Source: an uncultured Candidatus Saccharibacteria bacterium (GTDB taxonomy: Bacteria > Patescibacteriota > Doudnabacteria > UBA920). Taken from it: a stretch of DNA of 64,000 bases. Every line of letters begins with the position of its first letter. Position 1 is the stretch's first letter. Under the pieces are notes generated by a model. The model searched no databases and was not told the origin of the DNA. It worked only from the letters and a program-made list of their open reading frames with translations. The stretch covers positions 10,068-74,067 of the forward strand of contig CAZLPF010000002.1 of NCBI GenBank assembly GCA_964561365.1. The letters run 5' to 3'. Shown here one piece after another: positions 55,193 through 62,584 of the stretch. A program made the translations under genes and the position numbers.

Positions 55193-56014
55193 ATGCCGAG
55201 CGTATTCCAGGCACTCGTCCTCGGGCTCGTCCAGGGGCTGACCGAATTTTTACCGGTTTCGTCTTCCGCGCACCTCGCCGTTGCCCCGTGGCTCGCGGGC
55301 TGGCAAGACCCGGGCCTCGCGTTCGACATCGCCCTCCACTGGGGTACGCTGCTGGCCGTGCTCCTGTACTTCCGGCTCGATATCTGGAACCTCGCGCGGG
55401 GGTTCTGGCACAGCCTCTGGCCCTCGACGCGCGATTTTTCAGAGAACATATACCAGAAGCTCTCGTGGTTCGTCGTGGTTGCCACCATCCCCGGCGCCGT
55501 TGCCGGCAAGCTCCTCGAGCGAGCGGCTGAGCAGCAGTTCCGAGCGCCGCTGCTCATTGCCTGCACGCTCGCCGTCTTCGGCGTCGTTCTATTCATCGCC
55601 GACCGGCTCGGCACGAAAGGCAAAAACCTCGACCGCATGACCTGGACAGACGCGCTGCTCGTCGGTCTCGCCCAGGCCTTCGCCATTGTTCCCGGCGTGT
55701 CGCGGAGCGGCGCGACCATTGCCGCGGCCCTCGGCCGCGGCATGACGCGCGCCGATGCCGCGCGCTTCTCGTTCCTCCTGTCGGCGCCCATAATCTTCGG
55801 GGCCGGCGTCTTGAAGCTCCCCGAGCTCCGGCACGCGAGCGACGTGAGCGGCGTGGCGCTCGCCGTCGGGTTCTTCGCCTCGGCCGTTTCTGGCTACCTC
55901 GCCATCCGCTTCCTGCTCCGCTACCTTTCCACGAAGAGCTACGCGGTGTTCACCTGGTACCGCCTCGCGGCCGCGGCTTTGATCGTACTGCTGTGGTTTG
56001 GTAGAATGCGCTGA
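55193..56014 (+). CDS. uppP: Undecaprenyl-diphosphate phosphatase
   Basis: BacA family motifs GLTEFLPVSSSAHL and PGVSRSG. Confidence 0.9.
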   Translation: MPSVFQALVLGLVQGLTEFLPVSSSAHLAVAPWLAGWQDPGLAFDIALHWGTLLAVLLYFRLDIWNLARGFWHSLWPSTRDFSENIYQKLSWFVVVATIPGAVAGKLLERAAEQQFRAPLLIACTLAVFGVVLFIADRLGTKGKNLDRMTWTDALLVGLAQAFAIVPGVSRSGATIAAALGRGMTRADAARFSFLLSAPIIFGAGVLKLPELRHASDVSGVALAVGFFASAVSGYLAIRFLLRYLSTKSYAVFTWYRLAAAALIVLLWFGRMR

Positions 56015-56017
56015 CGC
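56009..56017 (+). promoter_or_regulatory. Extended -10 TGGTAGAAT immediately upstream of tRNA-Leu
   Basis: Within uppP 3' end; 7 nt before tRNA 5' end. Confidence 0.4.
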
Positions 56018-56024
56018 CGGAGTG

Positions 56025-56108
56025 GCGGAATGGCAGACGCACGCGACTCAAAATCGCGCGGGGAAACCCATGAGGGTTCGACTCCCTCCTCCGGCACCAC
56101 GGGCCCTG
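56025..56108 (+). tRNA. tRNA-Leu (anticodon CAA)
   Basis: Long variable arm, anticodon loop CTCAAAA, acceptor GCCGGAG/CTCCGGC, CCA encoded. Confidence 0.9.
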
Positions 56109-56211
56109 CATGGCTGCAGCCTGCGAGTACTGAATGTGTTCAGTCCTCTCTGGCTTTCGCCACCAACTCCTCCTACCCGATGAACCTGTCCGGGGTTCAT
56201 GGCAATCCCAA

Positions 56212-57309
56212 ATGGAAAACAACATGGACGACATACAGGCTCCACGGCCCAGCGGCGTGACGTTCGAGCCCCTCGGCGCCCCCATTCCGGTGCCGCCGTT
56301 TCAGCCTGCCCAGCGCGCCCTGCCGCCGGACGACCCGTTCAGCCGCATTACCGGCATTCCGTCGCCGGCGTTCAACCAAATCGCGAGCGGCGCGCAGCCA
56401 CACGCCGTGCCTGCTTCCGCGCCTGCCCCAAAACCCCCACAAACCACGCCCTCTTTCGTGTCCCCCTCGCCTTCGGCCGATCGGATTTCCTATGCCGACG
56501 CGAAAATCCAAGAGGTTGAAATAACCTCAATAGTCCCGAACCCCTACCAGCCGCGGAAAGTTTTCGATCCCCAGGCGCTCCGCGAGCTCGCCGACTCCAT
56601 AGCCGAGCACGGCGTCATTCAGCCGCTCGTGGTGACGCGAACGCCGTCGGGCTACGAAATCGTCGTCGGCGAGCGCCGCTTCCGCGCGAGCCAGCTCGCC
56701 GGTCTCTCGCGCGTGCCGGTCATCGTCAAGAACCAGCTCGAGGACATTACCAAACTCGAGGTCGCGCTCATTGAGAACATCCAGCGCCAGGAGCTGAACC
56801 CCATAGAAGAGGCGCAGGCCTACGACCGGCTCATGAAGACCTTCAAGCTCACCCAGGAGCAGGTGGCCAAGAAGGTCGGCAAGGCGCGGCCGTCGGTCGC
56901 CAACACCATCCGGCTCTTGAATCTCCCGGCGGAAATCCAGCGCGGGCTCGTGGAGGGGAAAATTTCCGAGGGCCACGCCCGCGCCATTTTAGGCCTCGTG
57001 GACCGTGAGAAGATGCTCGCCATGTACCAGCAGGTGCTCGACAGCGGCTGGAACGTGCGCCAGGTGGAGCTGAAGGTCCGCGAAATTTCCGAGCGCCGCC
57101 GCGTGGACGCCGCCGCCCCGGACCCCAAACTCATGGCCCTCGAGGGCGAGCTCCGCACCAAGCTCGGTACGCAGGTGAAAATTCAGCGGCAGGGGCGGGG
57201 CGGGAAAATTACCATTGAGTTCTTTTCGGAAGATGAGCTCGCGGACATTGTGGGCCGCATGGCCGAGCACCCGAGCGACGCCCCAGACGCCGGCTACATC
57301 GCCGTGTAG
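56212..57309 (+). CDS. parB: ParB/Spo0J family partition protein (Pro-rich N-terminal extension)
   Basis: ParB box GERRFRA, HTH KLTQEQVAKKVGKARPSVANTIRLL; no parA in window. Confidence 0.8.
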   Translation: MENNMDDIQAPRPSGVTFEPLGAPIPVPPFQPAQRALPPDDPFSRITGIPSPAFNQIASGAQPHAVPASAPAPKPPQTTPSFVSPSPSADRISYADAKIQEVEITSIVPNPYQPRKVFDPQALRELADSIAEHGVIQPLVVTRTPSGYEIVVGERRFRASQLAGLSRVPVIVKNQLEDITKLEVALIENIQRQELNPIEEAQAYDRLMKTFKLTQEQVAKKVGKARPSVANTIRLLNLPAEIQRGLVEGKISEGHARAILGLVDREKMLAMYQQVLDSGWNVRQVELKVREISERRRVDAAAPDPKLMALEGELRTKLGTQVKIQRQGRGGKITIEFFSEDELADIVGRMAEHPSDAPDAGYIAV

Positions 57310-57406
57310 CTGAGCCTTGCGGCCGGCTACCTCGGCCGCTATACTCACCGCGTGAAAGCTGTGCACCGTGCACAGCTTTTCAATTTCCGAAGGGGGAAGC
57401 AGATAC

Positions 57407-58795
57407 ATGCAACAGCCAATTGCTCTTTTTGACCTAGTCGGCGCGCTTGATTTCCGAGCGCTCCGAAAGGATCCGGGAGTCCGAAAGTTTTTGAGCGAGC
57501 GGACATTCGTCGCCGACAAAGCCAGGGTTGAGCTCGCTCTCGTAACCACCTACGCGAACTACCGCCTGTGCGATCCCGAGGTTGTTGAACGCGTTGCCGC
57601 AGCGTGCGCCGCCGTTACGGCGGAAGAAGTTTACGAGCAAGAAGATGAAATTCGCCACGACATCCGCGCGCTCGTGCAGTGCATTAAGCGCTCGCTCGCG
57701 AACAATTCCGACCACACCATTGTGCACCGCGGGGCGACGTCGTACGATATCATCGATACGGCGTACGCGCTCATGTTCCGCCGGGCCGTCCGCGAGCTGC
57801 TCATCACGCGCCTCAAGGGGATTGCCGCCCGGCTCATGGTCATGGCGCTCGCGCACGCCGAAACGGTACAGGTAGGACGGACCCACCGCGTCCACGCGGT
57901 GCCGATTACCGTCGGACACTGGCTCGCGGGTTTCGTGAGTCGGCTCGGGAACTGCATTGAAAACCTCGACCGGCTCGCCGGTGAACTGCGGGGGAAGTTC
58001 AGTGGCGCGGTTGGCGTGTACAGCGCGACCTCGCTCTTCGTTCCTGACCCTCGGCAGTTTGAGCGAGACGTGCTCACCCAGCTCGGCATGGAACCGCACG
58101 AGCACTCAACCCAGATTGCTCCACCCGAACGCGTGGCCCGCCTATTGTTTGAGGTCAACCTGTGCCTCGGGGTCCTCGCCGACCTCGCCGAAGACGTCTG
58201 CCAGCTCCACCGGCCCGAGATCGGTGAAATCCGCCTGAAGCCTTCCGGAGCATCTTCGTCGGCCATGGTCGGTAAGGAGAACCCGGAGGGTTTCGAGAAT
58301 GTCGTCGGTACGTGGAAGCTCACGCTCGGGTCCATGGTCGGGGTGCTCGTGAATCTCGTGTCGAACCACCAGCGGGATCTGTCGAACTCGATCGGCATGA
58401 GAACCTACTCGCAAACCATTGCCTGGGCGGCGTACCAGGCCGCCAGGTTAGACCGTGAGCTTGATTCGGTCATCGTCGTGCCCGAGCGGCTCGCGCAGAA
58501 CCTTCATCTCACCGGCCACTACACGCTCGGCGAAGCGCTCTGGAACTCGCTCGCCGCGCACGGCCACCCCGACGCGTACAATGCGGTCAAGCCGCTCGTG
58601 GTGAAGGCCAAACAAACCGGAACGCCCCTGTGGCAGCTCGCCGAAGCCGATGGCGCACTTGCTCCCTACCTGGCGCAGTTCACCGAAAAGCAGCGAGCGG
58701 CGATACGGAACCACGCCGACTACCTCGGCGAGGCCGTGGGTGTAACTCAGCAGGTTTGCAATCGTTGGCAGGAACGGCTCGGTCTGACGGCCTAG
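57407..58795 (+). CDS. Adenylosuccinate-lyase-like protein (fumarate lyase superfamily) with divergent signature loop
   Basis: Lyase_1 fold; signature GASSSAMVGKENP instead of canonical SSxMPxKxNP. Confidence 0.65.
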   Translation: MQQPIALFDLVGALDFRALRKDPGVRKFLSERTFVADKARVELALVTTYANYRLCDPEVVERVAAACAAVTAEEVYEQEDEIRHDIRALVQCIKRSLANNSDHTIVHRGATSYDIIDTAYALMFRRAVRELLITRLKGIAARLMVMALAHAETVQVGRTHRVHAVPITVGHWLAGFVSRLGNCIENLDRLAGELRGKFSGAVGVYSATSLFVPDPRQFERDVLTQLGMEPHEHSTQIAPPERVARLLFEVNLCLGVLADLAEDVCQLHRPEIGEIRLKPSGASSSAMVGKENPEGFENVVGTWKLTLGSMVGVLVNLVSNHQRDLSNSIGMRTYSQTIAWAAYQAARLDRELDSVIVVPERLAQNLHLTGHYTLGEALWNSLAAHGHPDAYNAVKPLVVKAKQTGTPLWQLAEADGALAPYLAQFTEKQRAAIRNHADYLGEAVGVTQQVCNRWQERLGLTA

Positions 58796-58872
58796 CGAGC
58801 ACTCGCTCTGAACACAAATCCGGGCCCGGCGGCGACCACCGTCCGGGCCCTTACCTTTTGTGGATTGCTTAC

Positions 58873-58901
58873 TTGATCGGTCCCTTGCGGCCTGCTATAT
58901 T
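58873..58901 (+). promoter_or_regulatory. Consensus sigma70 promoter TTGATC-17-TATATT
   Basis: Drives about 140-nt unit ending at terminator 59018-59052. Confidence 0.55.
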
Positions 58902-58910
58902 CACTTGGCA

Positions 58911-58997
58911 ATGTTAAAGCAACTCAACAGCAGCGTTCGCGTCAACGGTACGGTCGTTATTTCGATCGTCAGCGTTCTGCGTACGCGCTGGGCTTGA
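58911..58997 (+). CDS. Candidate 28-aa hydrophobic peptide (MLKQLNSSVRVNGTVVISIVSVLRTRWA) or small RNA
   Basis: Only ORF inside the promoter-terminator unit; leaderless position; coding status unproven. Confidence 0.3.
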   Translation: MLKQLNSSVRVNGTVVISIVSVLRTRWA

Positions 58998-59017
58998 GCA
59001 CTCGGTAAGAACTTCTA

Positions 59018-59052
59018 CCGCCTGCCCCGCGTCGGGGCAGGCGGTTTGTTTT
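59018..59052 (+). terminator. Rho-independent terminator CCGCCTGCCCC-GCGTC-GGGGCAGGCGG TTTGTTTT
   Basis: 11-bp GC stem plus U-tract. Confidence 0.75.
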
Positions 59053-59134
59053 AGGCCCCCGGTTGAAGCGAAACCATTCGCTCCTGCCGGGGTCCGGGAA
59101 ACGGACCCACTACAGCATCCGGGAGGAAACTTTT

Positions 59135-59341
59135 ATGGATATGGGACGGCCGAGCATCAGCTGGCTCAGGCAGCAGGTATTGAGCGCCGAGCGCGAGCTC
59201 GCAGGAATGAAAGACGGCAAAGAGCGCCGTCAGCTCGTCGGGAAGCGCGATCGGCTCAAGCGAACGATTAACTTGCGTTTGGAAGAAGAAGGTCTTCCTC
59301 GGAAGAGGTCGGCGTCGTTCATGGAGGCAATAGCATGCTAG
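59135..59341 (+). CDS. Small coiled-coil hypothetical protein
   Basis: ATG 8 nt after GGGAGG. Confidence 0.35.
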   Translation: MDMGRPSISWLRQQVLSAERELAGMKDGKERRQLVGKRDRLKRTINLRLEEEGLPRKRSASFMEAIAC

Positions 59342-59449
59342 CCGCTTCCACCCGCGTCCAACCTTCGGTAACCCACGGCACAGTGCCGTGGGTTCCATTT
59401 TTTATGCATTTTCGGTATACTCTTCAGGCGAAAGTCGTTCCCGCGTGAA

Positions 59450-59523
59450 CGGGCTGTAGTATACCGGTAGTACGCATGCATGGGGTGCATGTAGACCGGG
59501 TTCAATTCCCGGCAGCCCGACCA
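59450..59523 (+). tRNA. tRNA-Pro (anticodon GGG)
   Basis: C1-G72 pair typical of tRNA-Pro, anticodon stem CATGC/GCATG, loop ATGGGGT, T-loop TTCAATT, CCA encoded; TATACT -10 at 59416-59421. Confidence 0.85.
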
Positions 59524-59540
59524 CGCGTGAAGGAACTAGC

Positions 59541-60044
59541 ATGGCCGAAATAAAAAAACGTCGAAAATCAAAACTGTCCACAGCTGCTAAAAAACCTCCG
59601 GGGTGGCTGTCTGACCGCGAGTACCTCCGGATTTTTTCCCGCGTGCCGCGCCTGTGCGTTGACCTGGCCATTTTGGGACCCGGCGGGCTGCTGCTGGGCT
59701 GGCGCAGCCACGACCCGAGCCCGAACACCTGGAACCTTCCCGGTGGCCGCGTCCGCTTCCGGGAAACCGTAACGAAAGCGGCCCAGCGGATTGCCCGAAC
59801 CGAGCTCGGCGTCGGGCTGCGGGGGATTCGCGTGCTCGGCGTCATGGAGTTTTTAAACGAGGTGGACCGCGGGACGCCGATTCACTCCGTGAGCGTCGTT
59901 GTTTCAGCGTCGCTCGCCGGCAAACTGAAGCCGAACGGCCGCACCGCCCGGTTTCGGCACGTGCCCCGTTCGTTCTACCCGGTGCACCGCCGGTTCGCGC
60001 TCGTGCATGGCCTCATCCGTCCCGGTCCGCATTCGGCCCGCTGA
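59541..60044 (+). CDS. NUDIX-fold protein with degenerate Nudix box
   Basis: PGGRVRFRETVTKAAQRIARTELGV: Gx5E and R..E..G retained but REUxEE reduced to RIARTE. Confidence 0.55.
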   Translation: MAEIKKRRKSKLSTAAKKPPGWLSDREYLRIFSRVPRLCVDLAILGPGGLLLGWRSHDPSPNTWNLPGGRVRFRETVTKAAQRIARTELGVGLRGIRVLGVMEFLNEVDRGTPIHSVSVVVSASLAGKLKPNGRTARFRHVPRSFYPVHRRFALVHGLIRPGPHSAR

Positions 60045-60046
60045 AA

Positions 60047-60055
60047 GGGTATACT
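60047..60055 (+). promoter_or_regulatory. Extended -10-like GGGTATACT upstream of DUF1761 gene
   Basis: Motif family. Confidence 0.35.
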
Positions 60056-60085
60056 AGGGTACACTAATTCCGAACCCGAAAGGGG

Positions 60086-60517
60086 GTGTACATTTTGGAA
60101 TACAGCATCAATTACCTCGCGGTGCTCGTGGCCGGCATAGTCGCCGGCATGGGCGTGGGCATGCTCTGGTACGGCCCACTGTTCGGCAAGCCGTGGTCTT
60201 TAGAAATGGGCTGGGGCGGCATGACCCCCGAGCAGATCAAGGCCAAGCAGAAGGCGGCCATGCCCGGCTACCTCGTGAGCCTCGTGCTGAACCTCGTTAC
60301 CGCATTCGTGTTCCTCCACGTGCTCCAGGCGTTTAAGGCCGGGAGCGTCGGCGCGGCGCTCCAGGGCGCGGCATGGATGTGGCTCGGTTTTCAGTTCCCG
60401 CTCCACGTTGGCAAGAAGCTCTGGATGGACAAGAGCTGGAAGCTCGTCGCCATTGACGCGGGCTACAGTTTGGTAAGCCTCGCCGTTATGGCTGCCATCC
60501 TCGTACTCTGGAAGTAG
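60086..60517 (+). CDS. DUF1761-like small membrane protein
   Basis: 143 aa, 4 TM helices. Confidence 0.5.
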   Translation: MYILEYSINYLAVLVAGIVAGMGVGMLWYGPLFGKPWSLEMGWGGMTPEQIKAKQKAAMPGYLVSLVLNLVTAFVFLHVLQAFKAGSVGAALQGAAWMWLGFQFPLHVGKKLWMDKSWKLVAIDAGYSLVSLAVMAAILVLWK

Positions 60518-60626
60518 CCTATACGCAGCCTATGTTTTTGCACTCAGCCCCCTTCCTTACCTTCGGTTGGGGGCTGAGTGGTTTTTAGCCTGGACGGTCA
60601 AATAAAATTTCGCTAAAGTACCGCGT

Positions 60627-61907
60627 ATGAAGGCAACCTCAGTTCGGGTTGGATTTTTTTTAGCGACCCGCCAAATCCGCCGGGCGAGCGTCTGGACGAA
60701 CGGGCTCATCGTGTTCGTCATGACCCTGACGTTCCTGAACCTCGTGGTGGTCAACGGCGTGCTCGTCGGGCTCCTCACGGGCTCGTACAAGCAGTTCAAC
60801 GAGCGCTACTCGGGCGACGTGCTCGTCACCGCCCAAGACCGCCTCTCGAGCATTGACCGCAGCCCCCAGATTGAGCAGCTCGCCCGCTCCCTGCCGGGCG
60901 TGCACGCGGTTTCGGCGCGCATCGCCGTCAGCGGCCGCATCCGCGCCGACCTCGACCAGAACCCGAAAGGCAAGGAAGCGCCGAACGAGAACGGCGGTTC
61001 CATAGTCGGCATTAACCCCGAGGACGAAGAGGCGGTTACCGGTTTGTCAGACCTCGCCATTGAGGGCTCGTCGCTCAAACGCGGCGACAGCGGCGGAATT
61101 TTGATAGGCGCGAGCCTGATAAAAGAGTACTCGAATTTCGCGGACGCGAACTTTCCCGGATTCACCATCCTCCGCGGGGTGAAGGTCGGCGACAAAGTCC
61201 GCGTGACGCTCGCGGTACAGCAGCTCGGCCGCACCGTGAACGTTTCGGAAGACCTCACCGTCAAGGGCATCATCAAGAGCAAGGTCGACCAGGTCTCGCA
61301 GCGCTCGTTCATGCTTTCGAGCGAAGTCCGCAAACTCACCGGCAACACCGACCTGAGCGTCCAGGAAATTGCCATCCGCGCCGATCCCGCGCGCGTACCC
61401 GAGGTTGTCGACGCGCTCCGCCGCAGCTCGGACCCGCTCAAGGTCCGCGTCCAGCCTTCGATTGAGGCCATTCCGTCGTTCCTCCGCGACATTGAGCAGA
61501 CGTTCGGGGTCTTGGGCAACGTCATTGGCAGCATCGCGCTCGTCGTGGCGTCGATCACCATCTTCATTGTAATCTTCATCAACGCGGTAACGCGGCGGAA
61601 GTACATCGGCATCTTAAAGGGCATCGGCGTCAAAGCCGCGGCGCTCCAGTGGGCCTACGTTTTCCAGGCGCTGTTCTACGGGCTGCTCGGTACGGGCATC
61701 GGCAGCCTCGTGGTCTTCCTCTTGCTCCGGCCCGCCCTGGACGCCCACCCGCTCGACTTTCCCTTCAGTGACGGCATCCTCGCGGTCACCGGTCTCGGGG
61801 CCCTGGGCCGCGCCGGCATCCTCCTGCTCATTACGGTCATTGCCGGTTTTCTGCCGGCGCGGATGATCGTTCGCAAGAACACCCTCGACTCAATTTTGGG
61901 ACGCTAG
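60627..61907 (+). CDS. ABC transporter permease, FtsX/MacB-like
   Basis: N-terminal TM, large periplasmic domain, C-terminal FtsX 3-TM bundle; coupled to ATPase gene. Confidence 0.8.
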   Translation: MKATSVRVGFFLATRQIRRASVWTNGLIVFVMTLTFLNLVVVNGVLVGLLTGSYKQFNERYSGDVLVTAQDRLSSIDRSPQIEQLARSLPGVHAVSARIAVSGRIRADLDQNPKGKEAPNENGGSIVGINPEDEEAVTGLSDLAIEGSSLKRGDSGGILIGASLIKEYSNFADANFPGFTILRGVKVGDKVRVTLAVQQLGRTVNVSEDLTVKGIIKSKVDQVSQRSFMLSSEVRKLTGNTDLSVQEIAIRADPARVPEVVDALRRSSDPLKVRVQPSIEAIPSFLRDIEQTFGVLGNVIGSIALVVASITIFIVIFINAVTRRKYIGILKGIGVKAAALQWAYVFQALFYGLLGTGIGSLVVFLLLRPALDAHPLDFPFSDGILAVTGLGALGRAGILLLITVIAGFLPARMIVRKNTLDSILGR

Positions 61908-61909
61908 CC

Positions 61910-62584
61910 ATGATTACCACGAAGCAGCTCAAGAAAAGTTTCGGCAGCGGCGACCTCGTGACCGAGGTGCTCCGCGGCATTGACCTGGAAATTCCGGCCG
62001 GCCAGTTCACCGCCATTGTCGGGCCGTCGGGCGCGGGCAAGTCCACGCTGCTCTACCAGCTCAGCCTGCTCGACCACCCGACCTCCGGCGACCTGCGCAT
62101 CGACGGCATGGACGCGCTCGGCCTGTCGAGCGACGAGCGTACCGCCTTCCGCCTCACGCACCTCGGCTACGTCTTCCAAGACTACGCGCTCGTGCCAGAA
62201 TTGACCGCGGCCGAAAACGTCATGGTCCCCATGCTCATGCAGGGGCTCAGCGGCAGCAGCGCGTTCGACGTAGCCGAAGCCGCGCTCGAGCGCGTCGGCC
62301 TCACCGGCAAGGGTCGGCAGCTCCCGAGCCAGCTCTCCGGCGGCCAGCAGCAGCGCGTGTCCATTGCCCGCGCCGTGGCCCACAACCCGAAAATTTTGTT
62401 CGCCGACGAGCCGACCGCGAACCTGGACTCGGCGACCTCGCGGGAAATATTAAAACTGTTTTTGGAGCTCCACGGGTCCGGCCAAACCATTGTCATGGTT
62501 ACCCACGAGCCGGAGTTCGCCCGCATGAGCCAGCGCGTCGTAGAGCTCGCCGACGGCCGAATTACCGGCGATCATAAGCCGTAG
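61910..62584 (+). CDS. ABC transporter ATP-binding protein (MacB/LolD-like)
   Basis: Walker A GPSGAGKST, signature LSGGQQQRVSIARA, Walker B ILFADEPT. Confidence 0.9.
   Translation: MITTKQLKKSFGSGDLVTEVLRGIDLEIPAGQFTAIVGPSGAGKSTLLYQLSLLDHPTSGDLRIDGMDALGLSSDERTAFRLTHLGYVFQDYALVPELTAAENVMVPMLMQGLSGSSAFDVAEAALERVGLTGKGRQLPSQLSGGQQQRVSIARAVAHNPKILFADEPTANLDSATSREILKLFLELHGSGQTIVMVTHEPEFARMSQRVVELADGRITGDHKP

Follow-up and report, generated by a model that had tools for sequence, protein, structure and literature searches.

A conserved promoter, leader ORF, and terminator unit in Patescibacteria that resembles a ribosome-dependent transcription attenuator

The attenuators of the enterobacterial amino-acid operons (trpL, hisL, leuL, thrL, ilvL, and pheL) are ribosome-mediated (PMC1183508). 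In these trpL-type systems a short leader ORF occupies the 5' end of the transcript, four segments can form three mutually exclusive helices (1:2, 2:3, and 3:4) of which 3:4 is the intrinsic terminator, the position of the stop codon lets a ribosome that terminates there block segment 2, and no separate promoter serves the regulated genes. A second kind of leader, represented by bmrB of the bmrCD operon in Bacillus subtilis (PMC4191407) and by the mef/mel leader (PMC4335068), uses attenuation to sense translation inhibition. These leaders have ribosome-binding sites and control drug-efflux or resistance genes, and it is the translation status of the leader ORF, not a specific amino acid, that picks between terminator and antiterminator. 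In mycobacteria, leaderless short-ORF attenuators with poly-Cys upstream ORFs respond to cysteine and control Cys-related genes. To our knowledge, almost nothing is known about gene regulation in the Patescibacteria (Candidate Phyla Radiation), because these bacteria are uncultivated and have few recognisable regulators.

Here we analyze a small transcription unit in a 64,000-nucleotide stretch of DNA (the window) that comes from a high-GC Patescibacteria MAG. We propose that the unit controls the 68-aa gene at 59135-59341 as a trp-like transcription attenuator that depends on the ribosome, a reading that we consider on balance probable. It shares with the trpL-type attenuators the short 5' leader ORF, three predicted exclusive helices ending in an intrinsic terminator, the position of the stop codon, and a downstream gene without a detectable promoter. 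Unlike those systems, it has no Shine-Dalgarno (SD) sequence, its ATG lies at the RNA's 5' end or close to it, its ORF extends across both arms of helix 1:2, the proteins encoded downstream are small and without a Pfam family rather than biosynthetic enzymes, no Rfam leader matches it, and its host is a Patescibacterium. None of the 15 peptides in the family described below contains a codon run for one amino acid, and no biosynthetic genes lie downstream, which sets the unit apart from the trpL/hisL subclass; without a single-codon run, no sensed amino acid can be named. As in bmrB and mef/mel, the translation status of the leader ORF would decide between the two folds, whereas the cargo here is a 68-aa protein. 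The mycobacterial leaders offer a parallel for a regulatory small ORF at the 5' end of a transcript without an SD, but they carry Cys codon runs, and only 6/15 members of the present family are leaderless or nearly so. Our searches of the literature turned up no account of an element of this kind in Patescibacteria. The features of the unit and its surroundings, in window coordinates, are as follows.

58873..58901, + strand: sigma70-type promoter (-35 TTGATC at 58873-58878; 17-nt spacer with TG; -10 TATATT at 58896-58901)
58911..58997, + strand: leader ORF of 28 codons (MLKQLNSSVRVNGTVVISIVSVLRTRWA), no SD, ATG 9 nt past the -10, TGA at 58995-58997
58923..58956, + strand: segment 1, the ORF hairpin's 5' arm; codons 6-9 (58928-58936) base-pair with segment 2 at its antiterminator strand
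58963..58998, + strand: segment 2, 3' arm of the ORF hairpin, with the stop codon at its 3' edge
58998..59016, + strand: linker; in the antiterminator fold 58998-59000 pair with 59023-59025 and 59003-59007 with 59016-59020
59017..59053, + strand: intrinsic terminator (segments 3 and 4); 5' arm 59017-59029, loop 59030-59032, 3' arm 59033-59045, U-tract 59046-59053
59121..59126, + strand: strong SD (GGGAGG) of the downstream gene
59135..59341, + strand: presumed regulated gene for a 68-aa basic coiled-coil-like protein; no promoter-like site between the attenuator and the gene
59370..59403, + strand: terminator ending the operon of leader and 68-aa gene, directly before the tRNA-Pro(GGG) promoter
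59450-59523: tRNA-Pro(GGG), with its own promoter just upstream

An earlier sequence-only reading of this locus had described a near-consensus promoter, a 28-codon ORF, and a strong intrinsic terminator, and we found every feature it listed where it had placed them. The promoter matches the consensus at 9/12 positions with a TG-extended -10 and is the sole sigma70-like site on either strand of 57500-60500, where shuffled sequences give 0.6; taken alone it is not significant. Transcription is predicted to start at about 58907-58909. An ATG ORF as long as that of the window arises in 1.3% of dinucleotide shuffles of the transcript body, and GC3 is highest in the ORF's own frame (0.66 versus 0.48 and 0.45). 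The terminator stem begins 19 nt past the stop codon and consists of 13 pairs, 11 of them G-C, closed by a 3-nt loop and followed by TTTGTTTT.

Comparative analysis places these parts in a wider family. We identified 14 further units with the same architecture in Patescibacteria, mostly in Candidatus Doudnabacteria MAGs, which together with the window make a family of 15. Common to them are a near-consensus promoter (9-12/12 matches at the corresponding position in the 14 other genomes), an ATG ORF that lacks an SD and contains a long hairpin, and an intrinsic terminator (15/15). The units usually sit just past parB and ahead of co-directional small ORFs, often with tRNA-Pro(GGG). Eleven of the 14 relatives directly follow parB (their ParB proteins are 52-78% identical in amino acids to that of the window, nine of them at 68-78%), and in two others another gene is inserted at the parB junction, just as purB is in the window. 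The promoter, the 28-codon ORF, and the terminator are therefore genuine and evolutionarily conserved in a group of these ultra-small bacteria. The best non-self match of the window's PurB is only 48% identical, indicating that no close relative of this genome is available, a PurB-based scan of genome contigs found no relatives, and exact look-ups of the protein gave no record. Direct nucleotide alignment of the window with locus L001 was uninformative outside the tRNA-Pro promoter region. An nhmmer profile of the AT-rich members detects L125, L127, and L128 and misses the window, L001, L009, and L093. What supports the proposed homology of the window copy to the family is its synteny, its common architecture, and a match to L106 over 50 nt (76%, E = 0.037), a locus with which it also has the linker motif UAAGAACUUCUA in common. 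Upstream of the high-GC tRNA-Pro loci L086, L098, L104, L113, L057, L066, L099, L092, and L119 we saw no clear unit.

Several properties of the family bear on whether the leader ORF is translated. An ATG ORF of 22-33 codons is present in 15/15 units, and shuffling of each sequence gives P values of 0.013-0.094 for an ORF of that length (sum of log10 P = -18.7 over 13 units). The ORF frame contains no in-frame stops, the other two frames contain 1-4 stops in the AT-rich members, and all 30 internal gap runs in an untranslated nucleotide alignment are multiples of three. This conservation of an open frame suggests that the leader ORF is translated. An SD-like 4-mer occurs within 20 nt of the ATG in 0/15 units, so the predicted translation must use leaderless or non-Shine-Dalgarno initiation. 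The distance from the -10 to the ATG is at most 13 nt in 6/15 units, compatible with leaderless initiation, and the 9 nt found in the window, together with the missing SD, mark its ORF as leaderless or nearly so. The peptide sequence is poorly conserved across the family, and no more so than its nucleotides. BLOSUM scores show no advantage for frame 0, where conservative substitutions are not favored over those in the other frames, and hence no selection at the amino-acid level was detected. The AT-rich members do share a peptide motif, [LR]P[VT]F.K[AST][VI][VIL]W, and a basic C-terminus; neither the window peptide nor that of L001 contains this P..F.K..W motif. We also considered whether the Asn, His, and Cys residues that are enriched toward the N-terminus of the peptides mark sensed codons and dropped the idea, since a simpler explanation is that segment 1 is G-poor on account of its pairing with the G-rich segment 2.

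Nascent-peptide arrest leaders such as TnaC, SecM, ErmCL/ErmBL, and SpeFL also encode short peptides, with TnaC working through Rho-dependent termination and the Erm leaders acting on translation. ErmBL is a documented example of nascent-peptide arrest (PMC8274638). The Pro/Phe/Lys/Trp motif of the AT-rich members is reminiscent of this class, and the N-termini of these members (MNKHLC...KxxW) loosely recall TnaC. Unlike a typical arrest leader, the family carries the motif only in the AT-rich subgroup and gives no evidence for selection on amino acids.

The sequence-only reading had suggested another role for the ORF, namely that the peptide is type I toxin-like or membrane-active. In such a stand-alone small-protein gene the 28-aa peptide, whether a toxin or another micro-protein, would be the product itself. 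Type I toxin mRNAs (hok, fst, tisB, ibs, and txpA) likewise place a small ORF with poor ribosome access in a highly folded mRNA that has its own promoter and terminator, and some of them lack an SD; the conserved open frame and the common motif and basic C-terminus of the AT-rich peptides would also fit a functional protein. The peptides themselves argue otherwise. The hydrophobic stretch of the window peptide spans 11 residues (GTVVISIVSVL) with a maximum Kyte-Doolittle (KD) 19-residue mean of 1.37, too short and too weak for a membrane helix. Among the relatives, uncharged runs reach 4-13 aa and are usually interrupted by Lys, a Lys is conserved in mid-peptide, and the maximum KD(19) across units is -0.27 to 1.8, so that no transmembrane-length segment is present. 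In addition, the locus is single-copy and strictly syntenic, whereas toxin-antitoxin loci are patchy and multicopy; a self-search of the window found no paralogs of the element or the peptide; and a consensus scan of the minus strand over 57500-60500, which a non-canonical promoter would escape, found no antisense promoter that would mark an antisense RNA gene. Given these observations, the motif's absence from the window and L001, the lack of frame-specific amino-acid conservation, and a covarying antiterminator that a small-protein gene leaves unexplained, we regard this explanation as very unlikely. That the promoter, the ORF, and the terminator are real, and that the ORF may be translated, is the part of the earlier interpretation that finds support.

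We next turn to the RNA. Almost the whole ORF (58923-58998) folds into a hairpin of 76 nt (-33.2 kcal/mol, z = -4.35; 0/200 shuffles are as stable). This hairpin was not reported in the sequence-only reading. The stretch 58985-58993 of segment 2 (GCGCUGGGC) has two alternative partners, segment 1 or the 5' arm of the terminator. Based on this arrangement, we propose the following mechanism. Transcription would start near 58908, with the 28-codon ORF at the extreme 5' end of the RNA, and four RNA segments would engage in two mutually exclusive pairings: the ORF hairpin supplies segment 1 (its 5' arm) and segment 2 (its G-rich 3' arm, which runs to the stop codon), and the terminator supplies segment 3 (5' arm) and segment 4 (3' arm with the U-tract). 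With no ribosome on the leader, helix 1:2 and then 3:4 would form and transcription would stop at about 59050. A ribosome that reaches the stop codon would cover segment 2, again allowing 3:4 to form and transcription to stop. If a ribosome were delayed on early or middle codons, segment 1 would be unavailable and segment 2 would pair with segment 3, which in the window joins 58985-58993 to 59024-59032 and adds the linker pairs; the terminator could then not form and RNA polymerase would read into the 68-aa gene. We infer that the leader ORF is translated by leaderless or non-SD initiation and that the position of the ribosome selects the fold. The ribosome could possibly be slowed by general elongation stress, by a shortage of an amino acid or a tRNA, or by an effect of the nascent peptide. 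A more elaborate scheme, which we think improbable, would make the family the first leader of the Candidate Phyla Radiation known to sense translation. In this scheme, occupancy of the SD-less and often leaderless ORF, possibly with the conserved LPVF.KAVVW nascent-peptide motif as an arrest sensor for a ligand or for ribosome status, would switch on lineage-specific small zinc-ribbon and coiled-coil proteins encoded beside parB, and the abundant terminated leader could in addition act in trans as an sRNA or peptide.

Folding of the window copy is consistent with this proposal. When 58911-58955 is masked in the nascent RNA 58908-59033, the minimum free energy (MFE) structure is the antiterminator (-19.6 kcal/mol), in which most positions of the terminator 5' arm have pair probabilities of 0.6-1.0 and those at 59021-59023 and 59028 have 0.2-0.4; the terminator hairpin alone is far more stable (-28.6 kcal/mol). 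The strand of segment 2 spans -10 to +15 nt relative to the stop codon. The duplex between segments 2 and 3 is no better than with shuffled segment 2 in the window (P = 0.46) and in L001 (P = 0.41), a test that is powerless in these two copies because their sequence is GC-rich.

Further evidence comes from the family. MAFFT plus RNAalifold on nine units produced no consensus structure, since the alignment is not structure-aware, and we therefore used alignment-free tests of cognate and non-cognate duplexes and built no covariance model. Every genome's terminator 5' arm has its complement in the 3' arm of the ORF hairpin from the same genome, and the two together make an antiterminator. Cognate 2:3 duplexes average -16.2 kcal/mol versus -10.9 for non-cognate ones (double-centred permutation P<1e-5, also for the AT-rich members alone), an effect as strong as that for the two arms of the terminator itself (-17.0 versus -9.4). 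Three of four negative controls for the 2:3 duplex gave P = 0.11-0.65, and the fourth, with segment 3 reversed, gave P = 0.04. All three helices (1:2, 2:3, and 3:4) covary across genomes. When segment 1 is masked and the RNA stops short of segment 4, segment 2 captures 5-11 nt of the terminator 5' arm in the MFE fold of 12/13 units; in the window 7 nt are paired, and these use the linker. Upstream complementarity of this kind is much weaker for 93 other terminator-like hairpins of the same loci (mean -10.0 versus -16.0 for the units; Mann-Whitney P = 2.2e-5). Lastly, in 13/15 units the segment 2 strand ends -13 to +15 nt from the stop codon, inside the footprint of a terminating ribosome, while in L125 and L128 it lies farther away.

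These results also bear on the alternative, raised in the sequence-only reading, that the transcript is a small regulatory RNA. As a free-standing sRNA gene, possibly dual-function, the unit would always be terminated and would act in trans, and the alternative pairing would reflect its own folding or target-binding dynamics. The near-consensus promoter, the very strong terminator (13 bp in the window), and a stable fold whose overall shape is conserved all fit such a gene, and the AT-rich members expose CCUCCC, which is anti-Shine-Dalgarno-like and absent from the window copy. A terminated leader of about 140 nt would indeed exist as an RNA, and to that extent the earlier suggestion stands. 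It is the ORF, itself conserved, that disfavors a pure sRNA and leaves the peptide-versus-RNA conservation comparison proposed in the sequence-only reading without support for one. Furthermore, a conditional terminator predicts that its 5' arm covaries with the 3' arm of the hairpin, a pattern that ordinary terminators do not show, and most of the downstream genes have no detectable promoter. We consequently consider a free-standing sRNA unlikely. SRP RNA and 6S RNA were examined separately as identities for the transcript and rejected, as there was no model match, the conserved motifs are missing, and the hairpin is too short. The trpL attenuator of Sinorhizobium yields both a trans-acting sRNA, rnTrpL, and a peptide, peTrpL (PMC7298713, PMC7968998), so that attenuator-derived leaders can act in trans, and attenuator and sRNA or peptide are not exclusive readings. 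The terminated leader of the present family would similarly be a stable RNA of about 110-140 nt that is predicted to encode a small peptide; the two systems have no sequence relationship.

The surroundings of the unit point to the downstream gene as its target. The sequence-only reading had taken the unit to be its own transcription unit, a claim that the data do not support: the terminator has a covarying antiterminator, and the 68-aa gene has a strong SD and no detectable promoter, which together make the unit look like the 5' regulatory leader of that gene. The leader ORF lies 138 nt upstream of the gene; in some relatives the spacer from the unit to the next ORF is as long as about 400 nt. 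A scan of limited sensitivity, which also missed the tRNA-Pro promoter, found no sigma70-like site in 59053-59134, and by the same criteria an intervening promoter is absent in 8/11 relatives with a candidate in the other three. The 68-aa protein is an orphan in a search of 5.8 billion proteins, and neither it nor nine analogous downstream ORFs belong to a Pfam family.

A final question is what the switch senses. In one alternative the unit is an attenuator with a sensor other than the ribosome: a protein (possibly one of the small downstream zinc-ribbon or coiled-coil proteins), a tRNA, or a metabolite would bind the conserved apical stem-loop and its flanks (CCUCCCGG...AAGGCC...UUUGG in the AT-rich members), stabilize helix 1:2, and thereby choose between terminator and antiterminator, and the ORF would be incidental or secondary. 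The evidence for the three exclusive helices does not depend on what does the sensing. Nucleotide conservation is highest at the apical hairpin and its surroundings, and the stem of this hairpin covaries (GGUC/GGCC, GGUCUU/AAGACC, ACGCUUU/AAGAGCGU, AGCCUU/AAGGCU, and others), and the conserved UUUGR motif is read in a different frame by L108 and L001; the complete lack of SD sequences and the absence of any excess of conservative amino-acid substitutions in the ORF frame over the other frames point the same way. Such a sensor would leave unexplained why an ATG frame of 22-33 codons persists in all 15 divergent copies, why gaps come in multiples of three, and why the stop codon adjoins the antiterminator strand in 13/15 units. 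The apical conserved sequence is missing in the window and L001, and Rfam 15 gives no match to a riboswitch, T-box, or protein-binding leader (nothing but tRNAs at E<=1 over 55500-62000, and none at gathering score in the whole window or 11 related loci). We therefore find a sensor of this type unlikely. In our judgment the small gene that follows the unit is most likely under the control of a switch that senses translation, with a toxin gene or a free-standing sRNA less likely.

Because the mechanism is a textbook one, the advance lies in its taxonomic reach and in a new family rather than in a new principle. As a note of caution, units made of a promoter, a mini-ORF, and a terminator are easily misread as toxin or sRNA genes. 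If our proposal is correct, a group of unannotated small proteins would be marked as a regulated module. It would also mean that these reduced genomes sense through classical transcription-translation coupling, and it would offer a testable handle on the stress that Patescibacteria monitor.

The sequence-only reading had placed a promoter, a 28-codon ORF and an intrinsic terminator in succession, and all three elements were recovered. The promoter (TTGATC-17-TATATT) matches at 9 of 12 positions and carries a TG-extended -10; by itself such a match is not significant (1 site found versus 0.6 expected). An ATG ORF of this length arises in 1.3% of shuffles, and the terminator has a 13-pair stem (11 G-C pairs) with TTTGTTTT after it. 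Two features had been overlooked. First, a hairpin of 76 nt takes up nearly the whole ORF (-33.2 kcal/mol; z = -4.35). Second, with only 9 nt between the -10 and the ATG and no Shine-Dalgarno, the ORF is leaderless or almost leaderless.

Features of the unit and its surroundings (window coordinates)
56016-56099, tRNA-Leu(CAA)
57407-58795, purB (adenylosuccinate-lyase-like)
58822-58862, terminator-like hairpin of purB
58873-58901, promoter of the unit
58911-58997, forward strand, leader ORF (TGA at 58995-58997)
58923-58998, ORF hairpin
59017-59045, terminator stem
59090-59109, hairpin GGGUCCG-GGAAA-CGGACCC
59121-59126, strong Shine-Dalgarno GGGAGG
59135-59341, forward strand, 68-aa ORF
59051-59398, minus strand, 115-aa ORF
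59450-59523, tRNA-Pro(GGG)

The gene order in the window (62.7% GC) is tRNA-Leu(CAA), parB, purB, the unit, the 68-aa ORF, a terminator, tRNA-Pro(GGG), NUDIX and DUF1761. The best matches of its PurB are Patescibacteria at no more than 48% identity, which indicates that no close relative has been sequenced. The purB hairpin (GGGCCCGG ... CCGGGCCC, 8 G-C pairs and a T-rich tail) lies 22 nt upstream of the leader -35 and was missed by our consensus scan. The minus-strand ORF, antisense to the 68-aa gene, is probably spurious, since two terminators and a gene that has a strong Shine-Dalgarno overlap it.

The full 145-nt transcript folds with z = -4.69, as might a free-standing sRNA, a reading that we consider improbable. 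The stretch from the terminator to the Shine-Dalgarno preceding the 68-aa gene contains neither a sigma70-like site nor a TAnnnT hexamer; in 8 of 11 relatives, the interval separating the unit from the next co-directional ORF likewise lacks a promoter by the same scan. The spacer in the window holds the hairpin at 59090-59109; the fold of the entire spacer lacks significance (z = -1.34). The genes downstream encode small zinc-ribbon or coiled-coil proteins that have no Pfam family and show only weak mutual similarity (33% over 42 aa between the 68-aa protein and a 62-aa protein of locus L121). In L100, L108 and L121, though not in the window, the unit has small zinc-ribbon ORFs of the CxxC...CxxC type (48-68 aa) downstream of it, whose Pfam zinc-ribbon matches are all sub-threshold; two of them, L100_48 and L108_57, share 48% identity (E = 5e-7, against a tiny database).

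To find related units, we anchored a scan of GTDB genomes on the anticodon-arm sequence of tRNA-Pro(GGG) and scanned metagenomes using a ParB alignment, which is unbiased as to the RNA. At 11 genome loci ParB is 52-78% identical to that of the window, and in all 11 the unit follows parB directly, its ATG ORF lying between a promoter (9-11/12) and an intrinsic terminator. A nucleotide profile added three full units (L125, L127 and L128), of which that in L127 directly follows parB, bringing such loci to 12; inspection of ParB-downstream regions also revealed a truncated copy (L124). In L125 and L128 another small gene is inserted at the junction, as purB is in the window. Judged by eye from translations, these are a GxxExxY-type ORF (L125, 3326-3960) and a four-helix-bundle ORF similar to 23S rRNA intervening-sequence proteins (L128, 3287-3828). 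On the contig of L001, the best PurB relative, parB is followed by a promoter with a 29-codon ORF and terminator, a 63-aa ORF with Shine-Dalgarno, a terminator and tRNA-Pro(GGG); PurB and DUF1761 lie farther along, so the module is that of the window with purB placed differently. The majority of carriers are labelled Candidatus Doudnabacteria, and the order tRNA-Leu, parB, leader unit, small ORFs, tRNA-Pro(GGG) is kept across Doudnabacteria-like MAGs (window, L106, L108, L121, L100 and L087). No Rfam family matches the window unit or the related loci, and our literature search found no description of such a unit.

Sequence profiles do not reach the window copy; its homology is argued from synteny, from architecture and from a 50-nt match to L106 that is weak (76%). 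These two units are highly divergent apart from a common linker motif, UAAGAACUUCUA (59007-59018, just 5' of the terminator), which in L106 pairs with the 3' arm of the ORF hairpin in the antiterminator fold. In L087 the -10 is 138 nt from the leader ATG, versus 8-33 nt in other members, and this 5'-region insertion could form a hairpin of its own. The window and L001 share an identical tRNA-Pro promoter block, TTTTCGGTATACT. More than 120 GTDB species, nearly all of them Patescibacteria, carry the anticodon-arm sequence TGCATGGGGTGCATGTAG; many low-GC carriers titled 'uncultured Gammaproteobacteria bacterium' (TPA_asm; for example L004, L012, L013, L016-L018 and L023) are probably mislabelled CPR bins.

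An ATG ORF of 22-33 codons is present in 15 of 15 full-length units (shuffle P of 0.013-0.094 per sequence; sum log10 P = -18.7 over 13 units that are not fully independent). The ORF frame is free of internal stops, whereas the other frames have 1-4 in the AT-rich members. When the nucleotide sequences were aligned by MAFFT without translation, each of the 30 internal gap runs had a length divisible by three. Conservative substitutions are not favoured in the ORF frame (mean BLOSUM -0.54 versus -0.38 and -0.76), the conserved UUUGR motif falls in a different frame in L108 and L001, and the [LR]P[VT]F.K..W motif of the AT-rich subgroup is missing from the window peptide. No Shine-Dalgarno-like 4-mer lies within 20 nt of the ATG in any of the 15 units, and the -10-to-ATG gap is at most 13 nt in 6. 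On the question of peptide versus RNA conservation, the open frame is kept and conservation at the amino-acid level was not found; judged from these data, the open frame is selected and the peptide sequence largely is not, as expected if the ORF serves as a regulatory leader and does not encode a functional micro-protein. The hydrophobic stretch noted earlier is present, but spans no more than 11 residues and has no transmembrane-length segment. Together with the lack of an antisense promoter in our consensus scan, and with a syntenic, single-copy distribution (no paralog was found within the window), this argues against the suggested type I toxin, and we regard a stand-alone peptide or toxin as very unlikely.

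In predicted folds, every unit forms the long ORF-containing hairpin (arms 1 and 2) and the terminator (arms 3 and 4, the latter with the U-tract). The G-rich part of segment 2 resembles the terminator 3' arm of the same genome and can therefore pair with segment 3. These sequences vary among genomes while their complementarity is retained: GGGCUCAGGGU with ACCCUAAGCCC in L100, GUGAGGC with GCCUCAC in L106, and 18 pairs in L009. In an alignment-free test of RNAduplex energies (cognate versus non-cognate pairs, double-centred permutation), cognate duplexes were stronger for 1:2 (-29.2 versus -18.2), 2:3 (-16.2 versus -10.9; persisting in AT-rich members alone) and 3:4 (-17.0 versus -9.4), each with P<1e-5. 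Negative controls gave P = 0.11 (1:3), 0.65 (2:4), 0.40 (1:4) and 0.04 (2:reversed-3). Upstream complementarity is far weaker at 93 other terminator-like hairpins of the same loci (mean -10.0 versus -16.0; P = 2.2e-5). When segment 1 is masked and segment 4 left out, 12 of 13 units have an MFE structure in which segment 2 is paired to 5-11 nt of the terminator 5' arm; in the window the pairing runs via the linker (58998-59016).

In the window, 58985-58993 pairs with 58928-58936 (codons 6-9) in the 1:2 hairpin. When the nascent RNA is folded with 58911-58955 masked and its 3' end at 59033, the MFE structure (-19.6 kcal/mol) pairs 58985-58993 with 59024-59032, 58998-59000 with 59023-59025 and 59003-59007 with 59016-59020. 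Pair probabilities of 0.6-1.0 across most of the terminator 5' arm indicate that it is largely sequestered in this predicted fold. In this GC-rich sequence the 2:3 duplex does not outperform those formed with shuffled segment 2 (P = 0.46); at -28.6, the terminator hairpin is by far the stronger fold.

Based on these data, we favour, with somewhat better than even confidence, a trp-like, ribosome-dependent attenuator. With no ribosome, 1:2 would form, then 3:4, giving termination; a ribosome at the stop codon would cover segment 2 and again allow termination. A ribosome delayed on early or middle codons would leave segment 2 free to pair with segment 3, and polymerase would continue into the 68-aa gene. 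Measured from the stop codon, the end of the antiterminator strand falls between -13 and +15 nt in 13 of 15 units. An attenuator working independently of ribosomes would draw on the same alternative pairings and seems unlikely beside the selected open frame.

The ribosome-dependent attenuator would work like classical leader-peptide attenuators, whose structural features the family of units shows, and like the bmrB-bmrCD translation-status sensor (PMC4191407). The leader ORF has no codon run that could name the delaying signal and the unit has no biosynthetic genes, which places it outside the amino-acid-operon subclass. In contrast to the classical attenuators, the unit has an ATG that lacks a Shine-Dalgarno and is often leaderless, an ORF covering both arms of hairpin 1:2, a cargo of proteins without assigned function, and a Patescibacterium as host.
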